From: Gammaproteobacteria bacterium
GTDB lineage: Bacteria; Pseudomonadota; Gammaproteobacteria; Eutrophobiales; Eutrophobiaceae
Length of the DNA stretch: 64,000 nt
Assembly (NCBI GenBank): GCA_963422205.2
Contig: CAXMWX010000005.1
Span: 512,001-576,000 of the forward strand
Direction of reading: 5' to 3'
Shown: one piece after another, positions 1-31,344 of the stretch
How the letters are laid out: each line of letters opens with the position of its first letter
How positions within the stretch are numbered: position 1 is the stretch's first letter
Notes under the pieces: model-generated
What the model saw: the letters and a program-made list of their open reading frames with translations, nothing else
What the model was told of the DNA's origin: nothing
Databases searched by the model: none
Program-made: the position numbers and the translations under genes

Positions 1-1741
1 AATCCAGCAGGGGATCGAAATTAACCAGCAGGTAAGCGCTCAATGGCTGTGCCAGCATCTGGTGTGCATCCAGACCATCGATGCTCGCTGGCTTGCCGCC
101 ACACAGCCGGTGCGGTACGGCGCCCGCCTGCCAGGCCCCGACCACATTGGCCGCCTCACCCAGATAACCCAGCCGGACGCCGGTCAGCCCGGCCAGCCGA
201 CCGGCCAGATAGCGCAGCAGCGATAGCTGCGGATGGCTCATGGCCAGATTGCCCAGCAACACCGTACCCTTCTCGCCCCCCTGTTTAACCTTGAGCAAGG
301 CGCTGGCGATGCGCTCATGAGTCTCATCCGGGCGGATGCCAGCAAGCAGCCCACCCGCCCCGGCATCCTGGCCGCTCTGCTGCTCTGCCGCCTTGATAAC
401 ACCGGCCAGGGCGCCGACCATATCAGCCGCGCTCACCTGGGCGTACAATTCATAATTATACGCATCGGCCACCGGGTTGATGGTCATGATCGCCGCCCCT
501 TTTAATGCCGCCTTACGCAGGCGCAGGTTGATCAGCGGTTGATCCTTGCGTACATAACCACCGATGATCAGCACCGCCTCAAGGTCTTCCAGCACCGCCA
601 GACCAGCGCCCGGCTCATCGCCCAAGCCATCACTTAGGCCATCACCCAGGCCGGGCCAGGCGGGGGCGCTGTCCTGATCGGAAAAATCGGCCTGGCGCAG
701 GCGGTGATCAATATTGTTCGTCCCCAGGCCACGCATCAGTTTTTGCAGCAGGTACAGCTCCTCGGTCGTGGAATTGGCCGAAATCAGCGCACCCACCTTG
801 TCAATGCCATCCTGCTCAATGACCGCACCAAGCTGCTCGCCAATATGCACAAACGCCGTATCCCAGGCCACCTGCCGCCATTGCCCGTCGGTCTTTATCA
901 TCGGCGCCGCAAGACGTGCATCACTGTACATCCCTTCATAGCTGAAACGATCCCGATCGGATAACCAGACCTCGTTGATCGCCTCGTTCTCGGCCGGCAC
1001 AATGCGTTTCACGCGCCCGTCCCTGACGTGAAAATACAGATTGGACCCAACCGTATCATGAATGGCGATGCCGGGGTGCTGGCTCATCTCCCAGGCGCGG
1101 GCGGAGAAGCGGAACGGCTTGGCGGTCAAGGCACCGACCGGACACAGATCGATGACGTTGCCGGACAGCTCTGAGGTCATGCTTTTCTCTATGTACGTGC
1201 CAATCTCCATGAACTCGCCGCGGCCAGTCGCCCCCAACTCGCGCAGGCCGGCGATCTCCTCGCCAAAACGCACGCAACGGGTGCAATGGATGCAGCGGGT
1301 CATGTCCGTCTGCACCAGCGGGCCGATGTTTTTATCCTTGACAACGCGCTTGCCTTCCTGGTAGCGGGAGAGGTCGGCGCCGTAGCCCATCGCCAGGTCC
1401 TGCAATTCGCACTCCCCGCCCTGATCGCAGATCGGGCAATCCAGCGGGTGGTTGATCAGCAGAAATTCCATGACGGATTTTTGCGCTTCCAGGGCCAGTG
1501 CAGAACGAGTCTTCACCTTCATGCCGGCCATCACCGGCGTGGCGCAGGCCGGCAACGGCTTGGGCGCCTTCTCCACCTCAACCAGACACATGCGGCAGTT
1601 GGCCGCCACCGTCAGTTTTTTGTGGTAACAAAAGCGTGGTACGTAGTTATCGATGGAGTCAGTGACTTCGATCAACATCTGCCCAGCGCTCGCCTTGACC
1701 TGCTGGCCGTCAATCTCGATGGTGATCTGCTCATCTGCCAT
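1..1741 (-). CDS. nuoG: NADH-quinone oxidoreductase subunit G (partial, runs off the window start)
   Basis: Manual translation from ATG 1741: MADEQITIEIDG...PRFCYHKKLTVAANCRMCLVEVEKAPKPLPACATPV...INHPLDCPICDQGGECELQD...TRCIHCTRCVRF...CPVGALT, the canonical NuoG Fe-S motifs; directly downstream of nuoF. Not in the ORF track because it has no stop in the window. Confidence 0.97.
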   Translation of the reverse strand, partial: MADEQITIEIDGQQVKASAGQMLIEVTDSIDNYVPRFCYHKKLTVAANCRMCLVEVEKAPKPLPACATPVMAGMKVKTRSALALEAQKSVMEFLLINHPLDCPICDQGGECELQDLAMGYGADLSRYQEGKRVVKDKNIGPLVQTDMTRCIHCTRCVRFGEEIAGLRELGATGRGEFMEIGTYIEKSMTSELSGNVIDLCPVGALTAKPFRFSARAWEMSQHPGIAIHDTVGSNLYFHVRDGRVKRIVPAENEAINEVWLSDRDRFSYEGMYSDARLAAPMIKTDGQWRQVAWDTAFVHIGEQLGAVIEQDGIDKVGALISANSTTEELYLLQKLMRGLGTNNIDHRLRQADFSDQDSAPAWPGLGDGLSDGLGDEPGAGLAVLEDLEAVLIIGGYVRKDQPLINLRLRKAALKGAAIMTINPVADAYNYELYAQVSAADMVGALAGVIKAAEQQSGQDAGAGGLLAGIRPDETHERIASALLKVKQGGEKGTVLLGNLAMSHPQLSLLRYLAGRLAGLTGVRLGYLGEAANVVGAWQAGAVPHRLCGGKPASIDGLDAHQMLAQPLSAYLLVNFDPLLD

Positions 1742-6343: not shown

Positions 6344-6700
6344 CTACTCCCATTCCAGCGCACCTTTGCGCCATTCGTAAATAAACCCCACCACCAACAC
6401 AGCCAGAAACAACATCATCGCCCAGAATCCCACCATGCCAATATCCCGCAAGGCCACCGCCCAGGGAAAGAAGAAGGCGATCTCCAGATCGAAGATGATG
6501 AACAGGATCGCCACCAGATAATAGCGCACATCAAACGGCATACGGGCATCTTCAAAGGCTTCAAAGCCGCATTCGTAGGGGGATTGTTTTTCATCATCAG
6601 GCCGGTTCGGGCCGAGAAAATAGCCGATGGCGAACAGCAGACCACCCAGCAAGAGGCCGACGATGAGGAAGATCAGGATGGGTAGATAGTTCTCCAGCAT
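6344..6700 (-). CDS. nuoA: NADH-quinone oxidoreductase subunit A
   Basis: [35 protein letters not shown]. Confidence 0.97.
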
Positions 6701-6948
6701 GAATATTCAAACCAACCGGGTAACCTGTGTTATCTTGATAAGGATTATACCGCCATCCGCACAGGCTGCCAGCGAAAAAACGGCGAAATGCGGATTTTCT
6801 CCCCAATTTCTGCGGTGGTCATACATGCAGCGCATACACGGGCGCACTGTCGCTACAATCATCACCTGTTGCCTGAATTGTTGCCTGAATAATCGGGCCG
6901 GGCTATGCTTGATTTATTGCTTTAATCCTTAACCTAAGGAGCAGCGAC

Positions 6949-7413
6949 ATGGGCAGGACGATTTATGAAAGGCCAGTAAAAGACCTGGCGCGTGAATGGG
7001 CCACGGCGCACTAGCAACCTGGGCAGACATTTGAAAGATCACTCCTGTTCAGATGGTTCAAAGAGAATCATCAACATGTCAACCAAAATCACCTTAGCGC
7101 AGAACTGGAGACAATGATTACCCATGGTGATAGCAGAAAAAAACATCACCCGCTGCCATACCGGGAAACGGATATGATCTATTTTATAAAATTGGAATCG
7201 GCAGAAGCACCAGATACCGACGGCATGACAAAGAACAGCAGGAGCAAGCCGGTCAGAGGGATAATCATCGCCAGTGATATATCTGAAGATTTGCCGCTTG
7301 CCACCAAACATCTGCCGCATGTTAAGCGGATTGCGTGCGAGTCAGCTTATACGCTGCACACCGTAGGCTGGTTTTTTTTATCTTTCGACTTTGCCGACCT
7401 TAAAAAATCATGA
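6949..7413 (+). pseudogene. Degraded endonuclease NucS-domain-like gene (in-frame TAG at 7012 and apparent internal deletion)
   Basis: TAAGGAG RBS then MGRTIYERPVKDLAREWATAH*QPGQTFERSLLFRWFKENH... in frame with ORF 7114-7413. The end VRGIIIASDISEDLPLATKHLPHVKRIACE resembles, from memory, the C-terminus of NucS-like endonucleases. No PD-(D/E)xK core is visible. Confidence 0.5.
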
Positions 7414-9611
7414 CTGACCGCATCGCAAAACATGACCTGCTGATTGCCAGGCCGCTGTATGAGTTCGTGGGCGATGAGCTAAGCCCCGGCACGGGCGTAT
7501 CGCCGGATGCCTTCTGGCAGGCGCTGTCCTGCATCGTGGCTGAGCTTGGCCCGGAGAATCGCACGCTGCTAAAGCGGCGTGATGCCCTGCAAGCGCAGAT
7601 CGATGCCTGGCACATCAAACACCGGCAGCAAGCGATCAACCCGGCCGAGTATCGCCGCTTCTTGGAGGAGATTGGTTACATCCTGCCTGAAGGCGAGGAT
7701 TTCAAGGTGACTGTCAACAATGCCGATGAGGAGATAACACGTATCGCCGGGCCGCAGCTGGTGGTGCCGGTCGATAACCCGCGCTATGCCCTGAACGCCG
7801 CCAATGCCCGCTGGGGCAGCCTGTATGATGCGCTGTACGGCACCGATGTCATCCCGGAGATCAACGGCTGCAAGCGCACCCGACACTACAACCCGGTGCG
7901 TGGCCGACAGGTCATAGACTATGTACGCCGATTTCTTGACCGGGCCGTGCCGATGGCGGTGGGCAGTCACAGCCATGTGGTCAAATACCAGATCAAATCC
8001 GGCAGGCTGGTCGGGGTGATGGGCGATGGCAGCGAACACGGGCTGGGCAAACGGGAGCGGTTTGTCGGCTATACCGGCGACCCGGCGGCGCCGGATTCCA
8101 TCCTGCTGGAACACAACGCCCTGCATATTGAGATTCATATCGGCGAAGGCTATTACATCGGCCGGGGCGATCTCGCCGGGGTGTATGACATTTCCCTAGA
8201 GTCCGCCGTCAGTGTGATCATGGATTGTGAGGATTCGGTAGCCGCCGTTGACTGTGAGGACAAGGTGCGGGTGTACCGCAACTGGCTGGGCCTGATGCGA
8301 GGCGATCTAAGCCGCCGCGTGGAAAAAAACGGGGAGGTGCTTGAACGCAGGCTCAACCCGGATCGCACCTACCTGGCCCCGGACGGCAGGCCGTTCACCC
8401 TGCCGGGGCGTGCCCTGTTGCTGTTACGTCATGTCGGCCTGCACATGTACACCGATGCCATCACCTGCACCGATGGCCAGCCGGTGCCGGAGGGGTTTGT
8501 TGATGCCATGGTCACCGTGCTGGCGGCGAAACATGATCTGCTTGGCAACGGGCGCTACCGCAACAGCCGTACTGGCTCTGTCTACATCGTCAAGCCCAAG
8601 CTGCACGGCCCGGCAGAGGTGGCGGCGACAGTAGCCCTGTTTGAGCGTGTGGAGGATGCCCTGGGGCTGGAGCGGCTGACCATCAAGATCGGCATCATGG
8701 ACGAGGAACGCCGCACCACTGTCAACCTGAAGGCGTGTATACGCACCGCCGAGAACCGGGTGATCTTCATCAACACGGGCTTTTTGGATCGCACGGGCGA
8801 TGAGATCCACACCAGCATGGAGGCCGGCCCCATGCTCACCAAAGCGGCGCTGAAGACCGCCCCCTGGCTGCTGGCCTATGAGGACTGGAATGTCGATACG
8901 GGCCTGGCCACCGGCCTGCCGCGCCATGCACAGATCGGCAAAGGCATGTGGGCGGAGCCGGATAACATGGCCGCCATGATGGATATCAAAGTAAACCATC
9001 CCCGCGCTGGCGCCACCTCTGCCTGGGTGCCCTCACCAACGGCGGCGACACTGCATGCCATGCACTATCATCGCGTCAACGTCGGTACCCGACAGCGTGA
9101 ATTGTTGTATGCCCGGCGGGCGAATCTTAATGACATCCTCACCCTGCCCCTGCTTGCTCCGCAGAATTTAAGCAGGGCGGTGATCGTCAAGGAATTGGAA
9201 AACAACGCCCAGGGGATCCTCGGCTATGTCGTGCGCTGGATCGAACAGGGCGTGGGGTGTTCCAAGGTGCCCGACATCAACAACACCGCCCTGATGGAAG
9301 ACCGGGCAACCCTGCGTATCTCCAGCCAGCACATCGCCAACTGGCTGCATCATGGCCTGACGAGCGAAGCTGAGGTCACAGAAATCTTCAAAAAGATGGC
9401 GTTTGTTGTTGATCATCAGAATATTGATGATCCGCAGTATGAAAATATGGCGCCCGATTTCGATGCCAGCAGCGCCTTTCAGGCGGCGCTGGCGCTGGTG
9501 TTCACTGGTCGGCAGCAGGCCAACGGCTACACCGAGCCAACGCTGCACGAGCGGCGCCGGGCATACAAGGCGAAGCGGGCGGGCATGACAGATGCTGGCA
9601 CCAGGGCATGA
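7410..9611 (+). CDS. glcB: Malate synthase G
   Basis: 733 aa; [77 protein letters not shown]. Confidence 0.97.
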
Positions 9612-10081
9612 TGCACCACCAGTCATGCTGGTCGCCGCCTGGCCCACCATGAGCAGTCACGTCACTGATTGCAACAGATAGCGGGCAACGGACAGAGGCC
9701 TGGCCAGCAATCACAGCGCCTCATCTTAAAGAGCAGACAAACAACCGTTGCTTGCTCCTCCCCTCACATCGTTGCTAACAAGCCCATCACTCGCTGGCAA
9801 CTGCCCGATGACGCCCTGGATCACGTCATGATTGCCTGGCACAAGCACCCTGCTGCTGCCGGGACTTAGACAACACCCCTGGCCAGCTTGAGGCCGCCAG
9901 CATGTGATCAACTGCCGCCCCCTTCAAGTTACATACATGATCTCCGCTACGCATTGCACCGCCTGATCGGCCTTGCACCTGTGAGATATTTATCCAGGCA
10001 GATCATATCATCTTGAAAGAGTGCACATTGCTGGTAACAGACAGTCCGCATGTACGGATCAATCAACCCGCTTGATCAGTT

Positions 10082-10102
10082 AAATGTTATGTTATAACAT
10101 TT
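10082..10102. promoter_or_regulatory. Zur-box-like inverted repeat AAATGTTAT-gtt-ATAACATTT
   Basis: Perfect 9-3-9 palindrome matching the proteobacterial Zur consensus, about 150 bp upstream of a His-rich TonB receptor. Confidence 0.85.
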
Positions 10103-10251
10103 TATTTATGTGGATGAGGTATCGACAAATAGCCAGCGCCCTGGTGCGGGTCAGGCGGCCCTCACCACGCCCGCTGCATACAATCAACACGTTGTCATTC
10201 ACCGATCACGCCCGAACTTAATTCCCATTATCACTGACAGGAGCAATACGC

Positions 10252-12375
10252 ATGTGTACTTACCATCTACGGCTGTTAGCCGGGTCGCTGTTATTCGCTG
10301 GCAGCCACATCCCTGCCGCCCATGCCGAGCAGCAGAGGGACGCTTCAGGCTTGCCTGAAGTGAACATCACCGCCGACCCGCTCGGTGACGTGGAATCGCA
10401 TCTGGTCAAGCCGGTCGACCTCATCACCGCCGCCGAATTGCAGCGCCGTGGCATGGGTAATATCGGGGAGACCATCGCCAATCAACCTGGCGTTACCTCC
10501 AGCGACTTCGGCCCGGGCGCCGGGCGTCCCGTCATCCGAGGCTTAGGAGGCAGCCGGGTGAGCGTGCTTGAAAACGGCATCAGCACCCTGGATGTTGCCA
10601 GCATCAGCGCCGATCACAGCGTCACCACAGAAGCCGCCTTCGCCCGACAAATAGAGATCTTTCGTGGCCCGGCCAGCCTGCTGTTTGGCAGCGGTGCCAG
10701 TGCGGGCGTGGTGAATGTGGTGCATAAGCGGATACTGGACGACGTCCCGGCCCGCCCGGAAGGCACGCTGTCAATGCAGTATGAAACTGTCTCAGAGGGG
10801 ATAACGGGCGGCGGCAGTGTCAATGTCGGTGCAGGTAATATTGCCCTTCATCTGGATGGTCTGATACGTGATACCGAGGACTATGATATCCCCGGCTTTG
10901 CCGAGTTAGCGCCGGATGAGGATGAGCAGCGGGGGATGCTGGAGAACAGCTGGGTGAACACAGAGAACATCGCCGCCGGCCTGTCTTATGTGCAGGAGCA
11001 CGGATTTATCGGCTTCGCTGTCAGCCGCCTTACCAATGAATACGGCGTACCCGGCGGACATGGGCATGGACATGAAGAGGAGCATGGGCATGAGGAGGAG
11101 GATCACGAAGAGGAAGGGCATGAAGAGGAGGCCGAGGGCGGTGTGATGATCGATCTGAAACAAACGCGCTATGATATTGAGGCGGTGCTGGACAATCCGC
11201 TGCCAGGCATGGTCAAGCTGAGTACACACTGGGCCTACAACGATTATGCCCATGATGAGGTTGAGGCCAGTGGCGAGGTCGGTACGGCGTTTGAAAATGA
11301 TGAAGTGGAAGGGCGGGTGGAGTTTATCCACCAGCCAATCGCCGGTTGGGATGGGGCATTCGGCGTACAGTATCGCAACCGGGATTTCTCTGCACTGGGT
11401 GAAGAGGGCTTCGTGCCTCCCTCCCGCCTGGAGTCTATCGGCCTGTTCCTGGTAGAGAAAGCGGATTTCGGGCGCTGGCATGTCGAACTGGGCGCACGCT
11501 ATGAACATCAGAGCAGCAAGGCCGATACCCATGCCAGCCGCACAAGCCATGATCTCTACAGTACGTCTGCTGGTATGAGCTGGCACTACGCCGACAGCTA
11601 CGAGACAGGTATGGCCATCACCTACACCCAGCGTGCGCCCGCTATTGAAGAGCTGTATTCGAACGGCCCGCACCTGGCGACCAACACTTATGAGATCGGC
11701 AGTCCCCGGCTTGCCAAAGAGAGATCAACCAATGTGGATATCTACTGGCGCAAGATAACAGGCCGGTTTACCTTCAATGCCAACCTGTTCTACAACAGGA
11801 TTGATGATTTCATCTTCCAGCAGGAACAGGACAGGAATAATGACGGTGTGGCCGACCGGGTGGAAGAGGATTTTGATGCGGCATCTCCGGTTTTTGTGGA
11901 TGAGGATGATGCCTTGCTGCTGGTGATGCAAAGCCAGGATGATGCCGATTTTTACGGCCTTGAACTTGAAGGCAGCCTGCGCCTTGTTGAAGATAAGCAC
12001 AGCACACTGGACCTGCGCCTGTGGACTGACTATATCCAAGGCGAGCGCAGTGAGGGTATTAACCTGCCACGCATCACACCCTGGCGCTTCGGCGCCGGCA
12101 GCATCTATCAGCGCGGGCCGTGGCTTGCCTCGGTGGATTACACCCGGGTAAACAAACAGAATGATACAGCGCCACTGGAGACCCCAAGCGCTGGCTATAA
12201 CAGGCTCGATCTGTACGTCTCCTACACGACGGAACTGGCGGCCACCCGCCTTACGGTGTTTGCCAGTGCCAGCAACCTGTTAGATGAGGATATCCGCCGC
12301 CACACCTCGTTCATCAAGGCCGCCGCCCCGTTGCCCGGGCGCTCCGGCATGGCGGGTATTCGCGCCAGTTTCTGA
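10252..12375 (+). CDS. TonB-dependent receptor, ZnuD-like zinc uptake
   Basis: Signal peptide (AAHA-E), plug motifs FGPGAGRPVIRG and IEIFRGPASLLFGSG, His/Glu-rich loop GHGHGHEEEHGHEEEDHEEEGHEEE, C-terminal Phe; upstream Zur box. Confidence 0.88.
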   Translation: MCTYHLRLLAGSLLFAGSHIPAAHAEQQRDASGLPEVNITADPLGDVESHLVKPVDLITAAELQRRGMGNIGETIANQPGVTSSDFGPGAGRPVIRGLGGSRVSVLENGISTLDVASISADHSVTTEAAFARQIEIFRGPASLLFGSGASAGVVNVVHKRILDDVPARPEGTLSMQYETVSEGITGGGSVNVGAGNIALHLDGLIRDTEDYDIPGFAELAPDEDEQRGMLENSWVNTENIAAGLSYVQEHGFIGFAVSRLTNEYGVPGGHGHGHEEEHGHEEEDHEEEGHEEEAEGGVMIDLKQTRYDIEAVLDNPLPGMVKLSTHWAYNDYAHDEVEASGEVGTAFENDEVEGRVEFIHQPIAGWDGAFGVQYRNRDFSALGEEGFVPPSRLESIGLFLVEKADFGRWHVELGARYEHQSSKADTHASRTSHDLYSTSAGMSWHYADSYETGMAITYTQRAPAIEELYSNGPHLATNTYEIGSPRLAKERSTNVDIYWRKITGRFTFNANLFYNRIDDFIFQQEQDRNNDGVADRVEEDFDAASPVFVDEDDALLLVMQSQDDADFYGLELEGSLRLVEDKHSTLDLRLWTDYIQGERSEGINLPRITPWRFGAGSIYQRGPWLASVDYTRVNKQNDTAPLETPSAGYNRLDLYVSYTTELAATRLTVFASASNLLDEDIRRHTSFIKAAAPLPGRSGMAGIRASF

Positions 12376-26222: not shown

Positions 26223-27539
26223 ATGATAGCGAATGCGTTTTTCTGGGGTGTGATCAGCGCTATCGCCTTGCCCATCGGGGCGTTTCTGGGCATGTGGTTA
26301 CGCCCCGGCCACAAGGTGAATTCCATCTTCATGGCCTTTGGCGGGGGCGCCTTGCTGTTTGCATTGACCATTGAATTGTTCGGTCATGTCCCGCACCACG
26401 TTCAGTCTCATGGCAGCCGCCTCATCTGGGTGGTCTTCATCTGTGCCATCGTTGGCGGCCTGATCTTCTCCGGCCTCAATGCGCTGTTGAACAATCATGG
26501 GGCGTTCATGCGCCGCTTCTCCAGCGCCCGTGCCTTTCTTGCCAGACTCAAACACAAACGCACCCGCCTGCTGGCGGCACGCCTCGGCCGCATCGAGCTG
26601 TTAAATGCGCTCCCGCCTGAGTTGATGGCCAGCCTGCTGAACCGGGTGCAATTAAAAAAATACCCGGCGGGGGCGTATATCTGCCGACAGGATGAGGAGG
26701 CGAACGAGATGTTTTTCATCCTGGATGGTCAGGTTGAGATTATCCGGCATGAAGACGAGCAGCAAACCCTGATCGCTACCCTGGATGCCTATCAGAGCTT
26801 TGGCGAGCTAGGGCTGTTAAGCGGCTGCCTTCGAACCGCCGATGCCATTGCCAAAGGTGATGTGCAGGTCTATGCCATTGCCGTCGATGATTTCCAGCAC
26901 CTGCTCAAAAAAGACAAGACCCTGCATGAGAAGGTTCTGCGGCTGGCCACGACACGGCTGGATAACCTGCTGGAGAGGGCCCACGCACATGTCGATCAGG
27001 CCCGCTATCAAAACGCCTTTGATGCGTTGCTGGATGAACACCATGTCTCTGTCAGCAAAGCGGAGATCAAACACGAGGGGCAAAGCCGCGCCAGGGGCAA
27101 TGCCGCACTGGCTATCTGGATGGGGATTTTTATCGACTGCATCCCGGAGTCGCTGGTCATCGGTATGCTGGCCGCCAGCAGCGATGGCATCAGCCTGGCC
27201 TTTATCATCGGCGTCTTCCTGGCGAATATGCCGGAGGCCATGTCCAGCTCGGTCAGTATGCGCGAGAACGGCCTGAAACTGCATAGCATTTATCTGATGT
27301 GGGGCTCGATCACCGTGATCACTGGTCTGGGGGCGGCCTTAGGCGCATTCATCTTCCCGCCTGATCCTGTCGGCAGCTTGTTTTATCTGATGGTTGGCCT
27401 GGAGGCGCTGGCCGCCGGTGCCATGCTGACCATGATCGCTGAGACCATGTTGCCGGAGGCATTTTCACTGGGCGGTTCGGTGGTCGGCCTGTCTACGCTG
27501 GCAGGCTTTCTGACCGCCCTGATGGTGAAGATCATCTAA
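26223..27539 (+). CDS. ZIP (ZupT-like) metal transporter with an inserted cyclic-nucleotide-binding domain
   Basis: ZIP motifs MAFGGGALL, IDCIPESLVIG, FLANMPEAMSS, AAGAMLTMIAETMLPEAF flank a CNBD (YPAGAYICRQDE..NEMFFILDGQV...FGELGLL...RTADAIA). Confidence 0.82.
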   Translation: MIANAFFWGVISAIALPIGAFLGMWLRPGHKVNSIFMAFGGGALLFALTIELFGHVPHHVQSHGSRLIWVVFICAIVGGLIFSGLNALLNNHGAFMRRFSSARAFLARLKHKRTRLLAARLGRIELLNALPPELMASLLNRVQLKKYPAGAYICRQDEEANEMFFILDGQVEIIRHEDEQQTLIATLDAYQSFGELGLLSGCLRTADAIAKGDVQVYAIAVDDFQHLLKKDKTLHEKVLRLATTRLDNLLERAHAHVDQARYQNAFDALLDEHHVSVSKAEIKHEGQSRARGNAALAIWMGIFIDCIPESLVIGMLAASSDGISLAFIIGVFLANMPEAMSSSVSMRENGLKLHSIYLMWGSITVITGLGAALGAFIFPPDPVGSLFYLMVGLEALAAGAMLTMIAETMLPEAFSLGGSVVGLSTLAGFLTALMVKII

Positions 27540-28724: not shown

Positions 28725-29495
28725 ATGCCAAGCTGGTATGTGTATATCGTAAAATGTGCCGATGACAGCCTGTACACCGGCGTGACCACAGACATTGTGC
28801 GCCGCCTGCAAGAGCATAATCAGTCCAGACGGGCCGCAGCCTACACCCGAACAAGGCGTCCGGTGGCCCTTGTCTATACAGAAGCGCTCGCTGATCGCAG
28901 CGCGGCATGCAGGCGTGAGGCGGAGATCAAGTCGCTTGACCGGCAGGCAAAACACACACTCATAGCCACGGCGGATACGCCATATATCCGGCCCATCAAT
29001 GCGGCACAAAAGACGGCTGTTGAGGCCCTGACCCGGGATTATATTGACCAGGCAGGCCGGTTATTCGGTCAGGCGTTTCAGCCGATAGCGGTCGTGTTCG
29101 ATCTGTCGGGCCGGGCGGCCGGGATGTACAAGATAAAACGGGGGCAGCGGATGATCCGCTACAACCCCTGGTTATTTGCAAAATACTATGCAGAAAGCCT
29201 GACGAATACGGTGCCCCACGAGGTCGCACATTATATCGTCGATTGCCTGTATGACCGTCGGCATACCCGCCCCCACGGCCCGGCGTGGCAAGACGTGATG
29301 CAGCGCTTCGGGGCCGAATGCCGGGTTACCGGCGAGTATGATCTGACCGGCATACCGGTGAGAAAACAGCGCACATTTACCTACCGGTGCGGCTGTCGCC
29401 AGTATGAGATCAGCTGTGTCCGCCACAAGCGTATTCAGCGCGGGGTGGCGTATTGTTGTCGGCACTGCCATGCCCCCATTGCCGCCATTGCCTGA
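28725..29495 (+). CDS. GIY-YIG nuclease fused to a SprT-like zinc metalloprotease
   Basis: N-terminal WYVYIVKCADDSLYTGVTTDIVRRLQEHN...REAEIK (YhbQ-type GIY-YIG); C-terminal GRAAG, PHEVAH, HGPAW, YRCGC, YCCRHC (SprT plus Zn ribbon); one open frame. Confidence 0.85.
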   Translation: MPSWYVYIVKCADDSLYTGVTTDIVRRLQEHNQSRRAAAYTRTRRPVALVYTEALADRSAACRREAEIKSLDRQAKHTLIATADTPYIRPINAAQKTAVEALTRDYIDQAGRLFGQAFQPIAVVFDLSGRAAGMYKIKRGQRMIRYNPWLFAKYYAESLTNTVPHEVAHYIVDCLYDRRHTRPHGPAWQDVMQRFGAECRVTGEYDLTGIPVRKQRTFTYRCGCRQYEISCVRHKRIQRGVAYCCRHCHAPIAAIA

Positions 29496-30144: not shown

Positions 30145-31344
30145 ATGTCGTTTGAAGACATCGGCTTGATCGCCGAGTTACAGTGTGCTGTTGCCGATGA
30201 GGGTTACACGCACCCCACCCCCGTACAGATACAATCCATCCCGGCTATCCTCGCAAAACGCGATCTGATGGTCGGTGCCCAGACTGGCACAGGCAAGACC
30301 GCCGGTTTCACCCTGCCTATGTTGCAGCTCATCAAGCAATCCCAGGATACCGCGCAGGCACATCAGGCCGAGGCAATCATCAGGGCCCTGATACTCGTTC
30401 CCACGCGCGAGTTGGCCGCACAGGTGGGGGAGAGTGTACGCACTTATGGCAAATACCTGCCGCTGCGATCAGCCATCGTATTTGGCGGTGCGGCTATACA
30501 CAAGCAAATAGAGCGACTGGCAAAAGGGGTCGACATCCTGATCGCAACGCCGGGGCGGCTGCTGGATCACGTGCAGAGAAAGACGGTTGATTTATCTCAC
30601 GTCAGCTTTTTTGTGCTGGATGAGGCGGATCGTATGCTGGATATGGGCTTCATTAACGACATTCGCAAATTGCTGCACATCATTCCTAAGCAAAGGCAGA
30701 ACCTGTTGTTCTCCGCCACGTACTCCAATGAGATTAAACGCCTGGCCGATCGCTTGCTAAACAACCCGGAGATGATCCAGATAGAGACGGAAAATTCATC
30801 TGCCAAAGGCATCAAGCAAATCATACATCCGGTCGATCACTCCAGCAAACGGCAGCTACTCATGAAGATACTGGCCGATAACCCCGATGCCCAGGTGCTG
30901 ATTTTTATGAATATGAAACATTCCGCCGGCCGGCTGGCCGAGCGGATTAAAAAAGCGGGCGTCAATGCCTGTGCCATCCACGGCGATAAGACGCAGTCGC
31001 AAAGAGTGGCGGCATTAAAAAATTTCAAACAGGGGAAGGTGCGGGTGCTGGTGGCCAGCGATCTCGCCGCCCGCGGCATTGACATTGAAGACCTGCCTTT
31101 TGTCATCAACTATGATCTGCCGCTGGAGGCGGAAGTTTACATCCACCGTATTGGCCGCACCGGCCGCGTTGGCAAGACCGGGGTCGCCATATCGCTGGTG
31201 GCGGCTGATGAATCGGCCCTGCTGAAAAACATCGAAAAACTGATTGCCAGGCAACTGCCGCAGAAAGTCGTGCCGGGTTTTGAGCCGGATACCCGCATCA
31301 CACGCCTGTATGTGCCAGGCCAGCCGCTGTCACAACGCTCCTGA
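30145..31344 (+). CDS. rhlE: DEAD-box ATP-dependent RNA helicase, RhlE-like
   Basis: AQTGTGKT, PTRELA, TPGRLLDH, DEAD, SAT, ARGID, HRIGRTGR; GAGGAG RBS. Confidence 0.9.
   Translation: MSFEDIGLIAELQCAVADEGYTHPTPVQIQSIPAILAKRDLMVGAQTGTGKTAGFTLPMLQLIKQSQDTAQAHQAEAIIRALILVPTRELAAQVGESVRTYGKYLPLRSAIVFGGAAIHKQIERLAKGVDILIATPGRLLDHVQRKTVDLSHVSFFVLDEADRMLDMGFINDIRKLLHIIPKQRQNLLFSATYSNEIKRLADRLLNNPEMIQIETENSSAKGIKQIIHPVDHSSKRQLLMKILADNPDAQVLIFMNMKHSAGRLAERIKKAGVNACAIHGDKTQSQRVAALKNFKQGKVRVLVASDLAARGIDIEDLPFVINYDLPLEAEVYIHRIGRTGRVGKTGVAISLVAADESALLKNIEKLIARQLPQKVVPGFEPDTRITRLYVPGQPLSQRS

Follow-up and report, generated by a model that had tools for sequence, protein, structure and literature searches.

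An in-frame fusion of a YhbQ-type GIY-YIG nuclease and an SprT metalloprotease hints at a link between two poorly understood bacterial proteins

In this study, we describe a gene at 28725..29495 (+) of a stretch of 64,000 nucleotides from an uncultured gammaproteobacterium, referred to here as the window. We show that this gene encodes, as judged from its translation, a single polypeptide with two complete catalytic modules, namely a GIY-YIG nuclease and an SprT metalloprotease (Table 1). Its open reading frame of 256 amino acids starts with ATG, ends with TGA and contains no internal stop, both in the list of open reading frames and in the raw sequence. All the catalytic and metal-binding residues of the two halves are present upon inspection of motifs and alignments, and no domain beyond GIY-YIG and SprT was found in a Pfam search of the protein. 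SprT and YhbQ-type proteins are both orphans that occur in E. coli as well as in numerous further bacteria, and the architecture hints that these two poorly understood proteins may work together. We found no published function for bacterial SprT, and YhbQ-type nucleases are, to our knowledge, just as obscure. We know of no dedicated bacterial DNA-protein crosslink protease comparable to eukaryotic SPRTN or Wss1, a role for which SprT is the obvious candidate. The covalent link between the two families, which appears to have been made in either order and on two or more occasions, provides a concrete hypothesis that is cheap to test, and a naturally fused enzyme would permit its biochemistry to be addressed without reconstituting a complex. 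Should the partnership hypothesis be wrong, the gene would still illustrate neatly how two domains can fuse repeatedly and in either order.

Table 1. Coordinates of the fusion gene and its features, in positions of the window
Feature	Position	Strand	Basis or remark
Whole fusion gene	28725..29495	+	Single ORF, both Pfam domains in the same frame
GIY-YIG nuclease domain, YhbQ/UPF0213 (prokaryotic Slx1-like) type, aa 1-80	28725..28964	+	PF01541
Linker ATADTPYIR, aa 81-89, 9 residues	28965..28991	+	Domain ends in alignments A1, A5
SprT metalloprotease subdomain, aa 90-200	28992..29324	+	PF10263
H165-E166-x-x-H169 (HEVAH)	29217-29231	+	Zinc site motif
Third zinc ligand H184 (H184-G-P-A-W188)	29274-29276	+	Motif
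SprT C-terminal zinc ribbon, aa 201-256	29325..29492	+	Cys4 ligands
Zinc ribbon Cys C222	29388-29390	+	Invariant in A4
Zinc ribbon Cys C224	29394-29396	+	Invariant in A4
Zinc ribbon Cys C245	29457-29459	+	Invariant in A4
Zinc ribbon Cys C248	29466-29468	+	Invariant in A4

The nuclease half is recognised by PF01541 at residues 4-74 (E 8.5e-17, 61.7 bits against a cut-off of 22.6) and carries the family motifs W4-Y5-V6-Y7, Y17-T-G19, R26-R27, E30-H31-N32 and E65. Ten positions (W4, Y7, Y17, G19, R26, R27, H31, Y40, E65 and K76) are invariant in all 44 sequences of alignment A5. They include the catalytic set Y7, Y17, R27, H31 and E65, whose roles (GIY Tyr, YIG Tyr, conserved Arg and metal-binding Glu) we take to be those of the I-TevI and UvrC literature. 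By sequence, profile and fold alike, the top matches are two members of the UPF0213/YhbQ family, B. halodurans BH0048 (1zg2) and E. faecalis EF2693 (1ywl), with E values of 1.4e-15 and 4.7e-13 in the sequence search and of 4.9e-26 and 2.2e-24 in the profile search, respectively. E. coli YhbQ, which RefSeq names 'DNA damage response nuclease', is 40% identical to this half (E 1e-23), and chromosomal stand-alone genes from marine gammaproteobacteria (Amphritea, Marinobacterium, Arenicella and others) reach 57-71%. The N-terminal 80 residues are thus a complete member of a family that, in the part of PMC1564403 available to us, is described as typically lacking auxiliary domains, whereas here it is covalently joined to a protease. 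The same source distinguishes the Slx1/YhbQ lineage by a minimal domain without the C-terminal Asn of the UvrC lineage (PMC1564403). The fusion has no Asn between E65 and the end of the domain at residue 80, and its fold match to UvrC (1yd6) has an E value of only 1.0; its features place this half, a predicted endonuclease, in the Slx1/YhbQ (UPF0213) lineage. The eukaryotic Slx1-Slx4 structure-specific endonucleases belong to this lineage as well and likewise lack the Asn; they are matched in fold (4xm5, 4xlg and 7cq2, probability 1.00, E 0.045-0.09) and, marginally, in sequence profile (E 0.002-0.05), whereas the window protein has neither a RING/PHD finger nor an Slx4 partner. A GIY-YIG homing endonuclease was also considered and rejected, given that Pfam detects no NUMOD-like C-terminal DNA-binding module, the GC content is flat and the setting is one of housekeeping genes.

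The protease half matches PF10263 at residues 106-198 (E 4e-15, 56 bits against a cut-off of 25.6). G129, H165, E166, H169, P183, H184, G185 and W188, together with the four zinc-ribbon cysteines, are invariant in all 82 sequences of alignment A4, and the zinc ribbon of the SprT family (PF17283, Zn_ribbon_SprT) is detected by Pfam in the relatives P0002-P0006. The HExxH motif, the third His ligand and the Cys4 zinc ribbon are all found, which assigns this half to the SprT-like family on the strength of its motifs. As the NCBIfam model NF003421 scores 105.4 bits over residues 94-253, under its cut-off of 175, we regard it as a member of the family and not as an equivalog of E. coli SprT. The latter (YggI, b2944), of the same family and of the length of the SprT part, is 30% identical over 163 residues (E 3e-22). 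E. coli and stand-alone gammaproteobacterial SprT proteins share the invariant residues but, unlike the window protein, have about 165-200 residues and no nuclease domain. Matches in the ESM Atlas are SprT-only clusters with a score of 0.81, no more than a lead.

Modelling is consistent with these assignments. The AlphaFold2 model of the fusion has a pLDDT of 91.7, a pTM of 0.73 and no segment below 50, its input being alignment A4, in which the GIY-YIG half is covered by only two sequences; the zinc-ribbon blocks lie at 89-98 and the linker block at 79. In Foldseek searches, UPF0213 and Slx1 structures align with the N-terminal half, and the protease domain of human SPRTN (6mdw, E 2.4e-3; 6mdx, E 3.7e-3; probability 1.00, 155-156 columns), from an entry entitled 'Mechanism of protease dependent DPC repair', aligns with the C-terminal half. 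SPRTN is the best fold match for residues ~90-256, with 22% identity over 155 columns, although over the whole chain the TM-score reaches only 0.42-0.43 when normalised to the target, and profile comparison also finds it (6mdx, E 2e-5; 6mdw, E 1.2e-4). Both proteins share the HExxH and third-His zinc site followed by a zinc-binding subdomain, and the fold and profile matches assign an SPRTN/Wss1-type fold to the protease and its zinc-binding subdomain. The window protein differs in its total length of 256 residues, in the lack of the ubiquitin-, PCNA- or p97-binding tails and in its nuclease domain, which is absent from SPRTN. IrrE (3dti/3dte) is a weak fold match (E 0.46-0.78).

The two modules meet at what would be their natural boundaries. 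In alignments A1 and A5, stand-alone GIY-YIG proteins stop and stand-alone SprT proteins start at the linker columns, so that the natural C-terminus of the nuclease is almost directly joined to the natural N-terminus of SprT. The initial annotation, which had quoted the motifs of both domains, placed ATADTPY at the join and argued that these are not simply two neighbouring genes, holds on each count: every motif is found in the 256-residue translation, the joining segment is A81-T-A-D-T-P-Y87, and both Pfam domains lie in one frame of a continuous reading frame. Its statement that the junction has neither a stop nor an internal ATG can be extended, as there is no in-frame ATG, GTG or TTG between codons 47 and 124, which makes it impossible for a separate full-length SprT to be produced from an internal start. 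One might suspect a sequencing or assembly error that erased a stop or frameshift between separate genes, and locus L001, where removal of one in-frame TGA would turn two genes into a fusion, illustrates how little this would take. We consider such an artefact extremely improbable. The orthologue P0002, from another source, is 68% identical over its full length, has the same continuous architecture, and both its halves are equally conserved, which indicates that the fusion is not a product of assembly; furthermore, four other clusters carry the fusion in reverse order, and here a nine-residue linker joins natural domain ends in a regular reading frame.

The architecture, which the initial annotation proposed to seek in other genomes, does occur beyond this assembly, and it is rare. 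Among the matches listed from a collection of 5.8 billion cluster representatives, six clusters at 90% identity (P0001-P0006) hold the fusion, two with GIY-YIG preceding SprT and four, 75-78% identical to one another, with SprT preceding GIY-YIG. Since the window protein scores at over double the curated Pfam cut-off for each domain and five other clusters contain the same two-domain protein, the architecture exceeds what chance would produce. Identity to P0002 amounts to 68% in the GIY-YIG domain, 69% in the protease and 70% in the zinc ribbon, compared with two of seven residues shared in the linker (residues 83-89). The comparison shows, at the sequence level, that both halves are under similar constraint. 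Representatives at 50% identity could not be used to count fusions, as the opposite-order class sits under stand-alone representatives at that level; the sole multi-stretch match found there, P0126, is an SprT with a tripled zinc ribbon and was discarded as a fusion. We found no paper describing the combination of GIY-YIG and SprT.

The phylogeny of the SprT part suggests that the linkage is not the result of one event. In the denser SprT tree, the opposite-order fusions fall within three nested clades of stand-alone SprT proteins (support 96, 98 and 96) that leave out the clade of the window protein, and forcing the six fusions into one clade costs 66.2 lnL units (AU p = 0.00032). A single origin was not rejected in the first, sparser tree (AU p = 0.119), and the denser sampling was added once that result was known. 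According to the denser tree, the SprT-GIY-YIG linkage arose at least twice, in both orders. There are 44 close stand-alone SprT clusters with 61-72% identity to the opposite-order fusions, and some of these clusters may represent adjacent pairs of the L001 kind. For marine stand-alone SprT proteins, identity to the SprT part of the window protein is 49-58%. The GIY-YIG tree, with one of its 47 inner branches supported, says nothing on the number of origins. At locus L001, sprT is followed by one TGA (10517-10519), five codons and a GIY-YIG gene in the same frame, and its SprT, on a long branch, groups with neither fusion class with support. The true in-frame fusion and the Rosetta-stone link put forward in the initial annotation therefore stand, the link being firmer than its author could know given the two fusion orders and the adjacent pair in L001; its suggestion of crosslink repair is retained here as conjecture.

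Recurrence also bears on whether the fusion has a meaning at all. Two unrelated small genes may simply have adjoined and lost a stop codon in a near-neutral accident, each domain keeping its own function. The rarity of the fusion among the matches listed is what such an accident would leave, as are the single stop codon that separates the two states in L001, the 26 of 27 GIY-YIG loci without SprT nearby and the other partners of the nuclease domain: prokaryotic Slx1-like GIY-YIG domains are also reported fused to the unrelated HsdR, methyltransferases and TrmH (PMC1564403), and on account of these fusions the domain may be regarded as somewhat promiscuous. However, the families have been linked at least twice and in both orders, L001 adds an adjacent pair whose SprT belongs with support to neither class, and the two halves are equally conserved between species at 68% overall identity. 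In addition, each collection search listed 120 SprT-type clusters, among which the sole additional Pfam family is GIY-YIG; in neither listing do the 114 clusters without a fusion carry another Pfam partner. Taken with these observations, an accidental fusion seems unlikely.

For the function of the fused protein we propose, tentatively, that it may be a single-chain DNA-damage processing enzyme acting on protein-blocked DNA. We infer crosslink repair from the analogy with SPRTN and the RefSeq name of E. coli YhbQ. In such an enzyme, the zinc ribbon and the protease would bind DNA beside a covalently trapped protein, which the protease would digest in the manner of human SPRTN, and the tethered GIY-YIG domain would nick the strand beside the leftover peptide adduct, or at a stalled, branched structure, the nick opening the lesion for excision and resynthesis. 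The fusion would thereby make obligatory a cooperation performed elsewhere by separate SprT and YhbQ-type proteins. A precedent for joining a GIY-YIG incision domain to a second enzyme for the same lesion may be found in the mycobacterial Cho-like protein fused to an epsilon-type 3' exonuclease, as reported in PMC1564403, although that GIY-YIG domain comes from the UvrC/Cho lineage and is paired with an exonuclease instead of a protease.

A functional fusion might serve another job. The GIY-YIG domain could mainly recognise branched or single-stranded DNA and thereby direct the protease to stalled forks or recombination intermediates, or activate it there. Alternatively, the protease could control the nuclease, for instance by cleaving its own chain or by clearing away a regulator bound to DNA, in an IrrE-like fashion. 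Slx1-family nucleases are described as structure-selective and weak on their own, with Slx4 stimulating Slx1 about 500-fold (PMC7017083), SPRTN-type proteases as DNA-dependent, and the structural relatives IrrE and ArdC as having regulatory or anti-restriction roles (PMC7213743); the pTM of the two-domain chain (0.73) further hints at a defined mutual arrangement. Against this, every catalytic residue of the GIY-YIG set is invariant, which points to an active nuclease and not just a binding module, and no candidate regulator substrate lies near the fusion gene. We consider targeting or control possible, albeit rather doubtful, and lean towards processing of protein-blocked DNA.

The genomic setting is of a chromosomal, housekeeping kind. 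The neighbours of the fusion encode a ZIP transporter, a DEAD-box helicase and a membrane protein that matches no Pfam family, RNase D-like, CcoG/FixH, glutamine synthetase and ETF genes lie in the wider context, and no mobile-element genes are seen there. This setting matters for a protein of genetic conflict, be it in anti-phage defence, in anti-restriction or as a toxin, in which a nuclease would be combined with a Spartan-like protease as in ArdC of plasmid R388. PMC7213743 describes ArdC as a DNA-binding domain joined to a Spartan-like metalloprotease, a DNA-directed module and a protease in one chain as in the window protein, that overcomes restriction, and matches to the SprT half include five uncharacterised families of phage proteins (best phrog_10756, E 1.6e-10). 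ArdC is nevertheless plasmid-borne and anti-restriction, has a non-catalytic ssDNA-binding N-terminal domain, which Pfam does not detect here, and uses Glu as third metal ligand (PMC7213743), whereas the window protein has a predicted catalytic nuclease, a His ligand and a chromosomal housekeeping setting. The flat GC content across the gene (0.56-0.62), the identity of the nuclease half to chromosomal stand-alone genes and the fact that neither the fusion nor its two immediate neighbours match a PADLOC-DB 2.0.0 family at E <= 0.01 all speak against conflict, which we regard as very unlikely.

Beyond the fused gene, SprT and the YhbQ-type nuclease might be the two halves of a widespread, unrecognised bacterial pathway clearing proteins covalently trapped on DNA. 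They would act as a protease-nuclease pair, and possibly bind each other in a complex, also in genomes that encode them at separate loci, and the fusions and L001 would be genomic footprints of it. We view such a general pathway as conceivable rather than probable. Arguing against a general partnership, and against crosslink repair by the fused protein as well, are the presence of SprT at only one of 27 GIY-YIG loci, the lack of a LexA box, the unrelated neighbours and the rarity of the fusion. The 26 loci without SprT refer to flanks of up to 10 kb, shorter in 11 loci, in a sample that was drawn with patterns from the GIY-YIG half and so represents GIY-YIG and not SprT loci, the window's own genome being outside it. 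Neither a LexA (SOS) box, in a pattern scan, nor a promoter-like site just upstream, in a promoter and terminator scan, was found for the fusion; window-wide, the LexA-box pattern occurs 24 times against 18.2 +/- 4.3 expected, that is, at chance level. No neighbour of the stand-alone GIY-YIG gene is conserved across 81 flanking ORFs from 21 loci. In E. coli, sprT is followed by endA and not by a GIY-YIG gene; as EndA is a periplasmic enzyme, this adjacency may be coincidental and is not counted here in favour of a repair role. In favour of such a role, the gene for an AlkB-like repair oxygenase begins 20 bp downstream of a stand-alone GIY-YIG gene at locus L014.

The fusion gene is one unbroken reading frame of 256 codons, which starts with M-P-S-W-Y-V-Y-I, stops at TGA and encodes a genuine and conserved polypeptide made of two enzymes. 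In Pfam, residues 4-74 match a GIY-YIG catalytic domain (E 8.5e-17, 61.7 bits against a cut-off of 22.6) and residues 106-198 a SprT-like domain (E 4e-15, 56 bits against 25.6), and the NCBIfam SprT model NF003421 covers residues 94-253 with 105.4 bits, short of the 175 that it requires of an equivalog. No in-frame ATG, GTG or TTG lies between codons 47 and 124. The initial annotation, made from the sequence alone, had proposed such an in-frame joining of the two enzymes, and this is borne out in full, down to the motifs it cited, all of which lie where it had placed them. Comparison with stand-alone relatives (alignments A1 and A5) locates the natural end of the nuclease at about residue 80 and the natural start of SprT, marked by a conserved P-I-N...Q motif, at about residues 88-90; because the domain ends of these relatives fall there, the ATADTPYIR linker connects a natural GIY-YIG C-terminus with a natural SprT N-terminus. 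Residues G129, H165, E166, H169, P183, H184, G185 and W188 are invariant in 82 SprT sequences (alignment A4), as are C222, C224, C245 and C248, and the positions invariant in 44 GIY-YIG sequences (A5; W4, Y7, Y17, G19, R26, R27, H31, Y40, E65 and K76) are all present in the window protein. This is a genuine, well-formed gene and a new combination of two known kinds of domain.

Positions of the genes and domains discussed (nucleotides of the window or locus, unless marked aa)
Feature	Location	Strand	Length
Window, ZIP-family metal transporter	26223-27539	+	438 aa
Window, fusion gene	28725-29495	+	256 aa
Window, zinc ribbon of the fusion gene	29325-29492		
Window, DEAD-box helicase	30145-31344	+	
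L001, sprT	9980-10519		179 aa
L001, GIY-YIG gene	10535-10780		81 aa
L008, DEAD-box helicase	7358-8737	-	
L027, DEAD-box helicase	7946-9319	-	
L009, stand-alone GIY-YIG gene	10001-10237		
L009, YgjP-like metallopeptidase	10246-10935	-	
L014, stand-alone GIY-YIG gene	6686-6928	+	
L014, AlkB-like oxygenase	6948-7574	+	
L028, E. coli K-12 sprT locus	NC_000913.3 3089755-3091054		
P0003-P0006, SprT	aa ~21-114		
P0003-P0006, zinc ribbon	aa ~132-170		
P0003-P0006, GIY-YIG	aa ~177-250		

The architecture, PF01541 with PF10263, is also found beyond this assembly. Among 5.8 billion cluster representatives, a word-seeded search returned 675 proteins at E <= 1e-3 from 1664 candidates; among the best 120 of these, both Pfam families occur in six (P0001, the window protein, to P0006) and SprT families alone in 114. 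When P0005 was used as the seed, 378 matches were obtained from 1166 candidates, the best 120 of which contain the same six fusions and no others. The domain order of the window is kept in P0002 and reversed in P0003-P0006. P0002 (258 aa), which comes from another source, shares 68% identity with the window protein: the GIY-YIG part agrees at 68%, the protease at 69% and the zinc ribbon at 70%, and the linker keeps 2 of 7 residues, the pattern that would be expected of two constrained domains and a free linker. Because this protein from another source shares the continuous architecture, a sequencing error that hides a stop is very unlikely, and that the fusion is an artefact is scarcely credible.

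When 1.84 billion representatives at 50% identity were searched exhaustively (12,316 matches at E <= 1e-3), P0001 alone among the best 150 matched both halves, in a library that is unfit as a fusion census because the opposite-order class sits in clusters with stand-alone representatives. The sole multi-stretch match of this search, P0126 (327 aa), was rejected as a fusion, being a SprT protein in which the C-terminal zinc ribbon is present three times in tandem with short spacers. Two further SprT proteins, P0219 (335 aa) and P0238 (300 aa), carry C-terminal extensions of about 120-150 residues without a Pfam match, which resemble each other near their ends. The ESM Atlas, among clusters of at least 50 members, gave SprT-only clusters (score 0.81) and no fusion.

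The reversed proteins (254-262 aa) share 75-78% mutual identity and run from SprT to GIY-YIG. A scan of the genome collection with both patterns from the GIY-YIG half gave 68 pattern matches and 27 loci, in 26 of which tblastn (E <= 1e-3) found no SprT near the GIY-YIG gene within flanks of up to 10 kb, shorter on at least one side in 11 loci. In L001, from an uncultured gammaproteobacterial MAG, sprT is followed in the same frame by the GIY-YIG gene, the gap being a TGA and five codons (10517-10534). This pair is a single substitution from a SprT-first fusion, and its junction could mark two genuinely neighbouring genes, a fusion that broke not long ago or a site of read-through.

In a first SprT tree (87 rows), which had a weak backbone, the window-order and opposite-order fusions fell in supported clades (97 and 100, the latter including the stand-alone P0129), and an AU test did not reject one clade for the six fusions (p = 0.119, lnL difference 36.6). 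The P0005 search revealed 44 stand-alone SprT clusters 61-72% identical to the opposite-order SprT half; between the window SprT half and P0005, identity is only 43%. The denser tree of 61 rows comprised the six fusions, L001, the 20 nearest stand-alone kin of the window protein, 26 new kin and 8 others, the distant representatives of the first tree being left out. There, the opposite-order fusions lie within nested clades (96, 98, 96) made up otherwise of SprT proteins that are stand-alone as judged by length and Pfam content only, with the window clade outside. A single clade is rejected (p = 0.00032, lnL difference 66.2), a value to be read jointly with that of the first tree, as the six-fusion group was fixed before both trees and the denser sampling was picked after the first result. 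The two families have come together on at least two occasions, and in both orders; given this, we hold an accidental, near-neutral fusion to be unlikely. The L001 SprT forms a long branch in both trees, with no supported grouping with either fusion class, and a GIY-YIG tree (50 rows, without the six weakest loci, L021-L026), with 1 of 47 branches supported, is uninformative on origins.

An AlphaFold2 model of the window protein, computed from A4 and with its GIY-YIG half backed by just two aligned sequences, has a mean pLDDT of 91.7, a pTM of 0.73 and no segment below 50. Its best Foldseek matches in the PDB are the UPF0213 proteins 1zg2 (E 1.4e-5) and 1ywl (E 1.7e-3), followed by human SPRTN (6mdw, E 2.4e-3; 6mdx, E 3.7e-3; 155-156 columns, 22% identity) and then by Slx1 structures, with UvrC 1yd6 no better than E 1.0. 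The same proteins are reached by sequence (1zg2, E 1.4e-15; 1ywl, E 4.7e-13), by the GIY-YIG profile (E 4.9e-26 and 2.2e-24) and, for Spartan, by the SprT profile (6mdx, E 2e-5; 6mdw, E 1.2e-4). From these likenesses we tentatively favour a role in DNA damage: the Spartan-like protease would clear a protein stuck on the DNA, and the Slx1-type nuclease tethered to it would cut the DNA close by. That one of the two domains has instead a targeting or regulatory role seems to us somewhat doubtful. For experiments, the gene is a cheap and specific way into two orphan bacterial families.

The SprT profile ranks C2H2 zinc-finger arrays (PRDM9, ZNF568) above Spartan, through short, repeated matches on the R-H-x-R...G...Y-x-C-x-x-C stretch of the zinc ribbon (positions ~149-175 of the profile alignment A6), which looks like a zinc-finger linker and knuckle. 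As these are short repeats with a likeness of pattern only, kinship was set aside, and the resemblance is probably convergent.

Upstream of the fusion gene lie, in order, ccoG/fixH and genes for a Sel1-repeat protein, a GMC oxidoreductase, an RNase D-like exonuclease, the ZIP transporter and a 371-aa membrane protein that no Pfam family matches; the fusion gene is followed downstream by a 66-aa ORF, the DEAD-box helicase, a glutamine-synthetase-like enzyme, ETF subunits, EamA transporters and an AcrB pump. The CcoG protein has no match above 76% identity, and its named matches are confined to gammaproteobacterial MAGs and Candidatus Muproteobacteria. In the ZIP transporter, a cyclic-nucleotide-binding domain (aa 145-231) separates the hydrophobic N-terminal part from the Zip match (aa 257-415), which suggests a nucleotide-gated metal transporter. 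GC content across the fusion gene (0.56-0.62) resembles that of its surroundings. The 64-kb window holds no further SprT or GIY-YIG copy; directly upstream of the fusion gene there is no promoter-like site and no LexA-box pattern, and terminator-like sites are at chance level. PADLOC gave no matches, PHROGs matched the SprT half only, in families without known function, and a role in a conflict system is quite improbable. In the window and at two of the 27 loci (L008, L027), no more than about 1.3 kb separates the GIY-YIG gene from a gene for a DEAD-box helicase, at 40-41% identity and in differing orientations, a synteny that is weak or coincidental.

In the literature searched, the architecture is undescribed, and domain-architecture databases may list it. 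Full-text searches, judged by titles and abstract openings, found no paper on a fusion of SprT or another metalloprotease with GIY-YIG, and for bacterial SprT function they gave eukaryotic SPRTN/Wss1 work and incidental mentions only. According to a 2006 phylogenomic survey of the superfamily, prokaryotic Slx1-family GIY-YIG proteins 'typically lack any auxiliary domains'; the fusion partners that it names are HsdR, methyltransferases and TrmH, and neither 'protease' nor 'peptidase' occurs anywhere in its text (PMC1564403). ArdC is described as binding DNA and as carrying a Spartan-like protease domain (PMC7213743).

Because the fusion is rare and 26 of 27 GIY-YIG genes have no SprT nearby, a general SprT-YhbQ partnership is a hypothesis rather than a finding, and we regard it as rather unlikely to hold. 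Among 81 flanking ORFs of 21 loci (without L021-L026), no conserved neighbour of stand-alone GIY-YIG genes was found. A handful of these neighbours are DNA-related. In L014, an AlkB-like 2OG-Fe(II) oxygenase gene begins 20 bp 3' of the GIY-YIG gene, a possible repair operon at one locus; in both L012 and L013 the GIY-YIG gene has a divergent dnaN, in L016 a convergent rdgC, and L018 has a PIF1-type helicase close by. The N-terminal half of the window protein shares 40% identity (E 1e-23) with E. coli YhbQ, to which RefSeq gives the name 'DNA damage response nuclease YhbQ', and the SprT half shares 30% (E 3e-22) with E. coli YggI (SprT). On the same strand as yggI, 95 bp 3' of it, lies endA (endonuclease I), another SprT-nuclease adjacency, though EndA is periplasmic. 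In L009, a YgjP-like HExxH metallopeptidase gene is convergent with a stand-alone GIY-YIG gene across a 9-bp gap, which places a second, different zinc protease beside a YhbQ-type nuclease, at one locus and on opposite strands.
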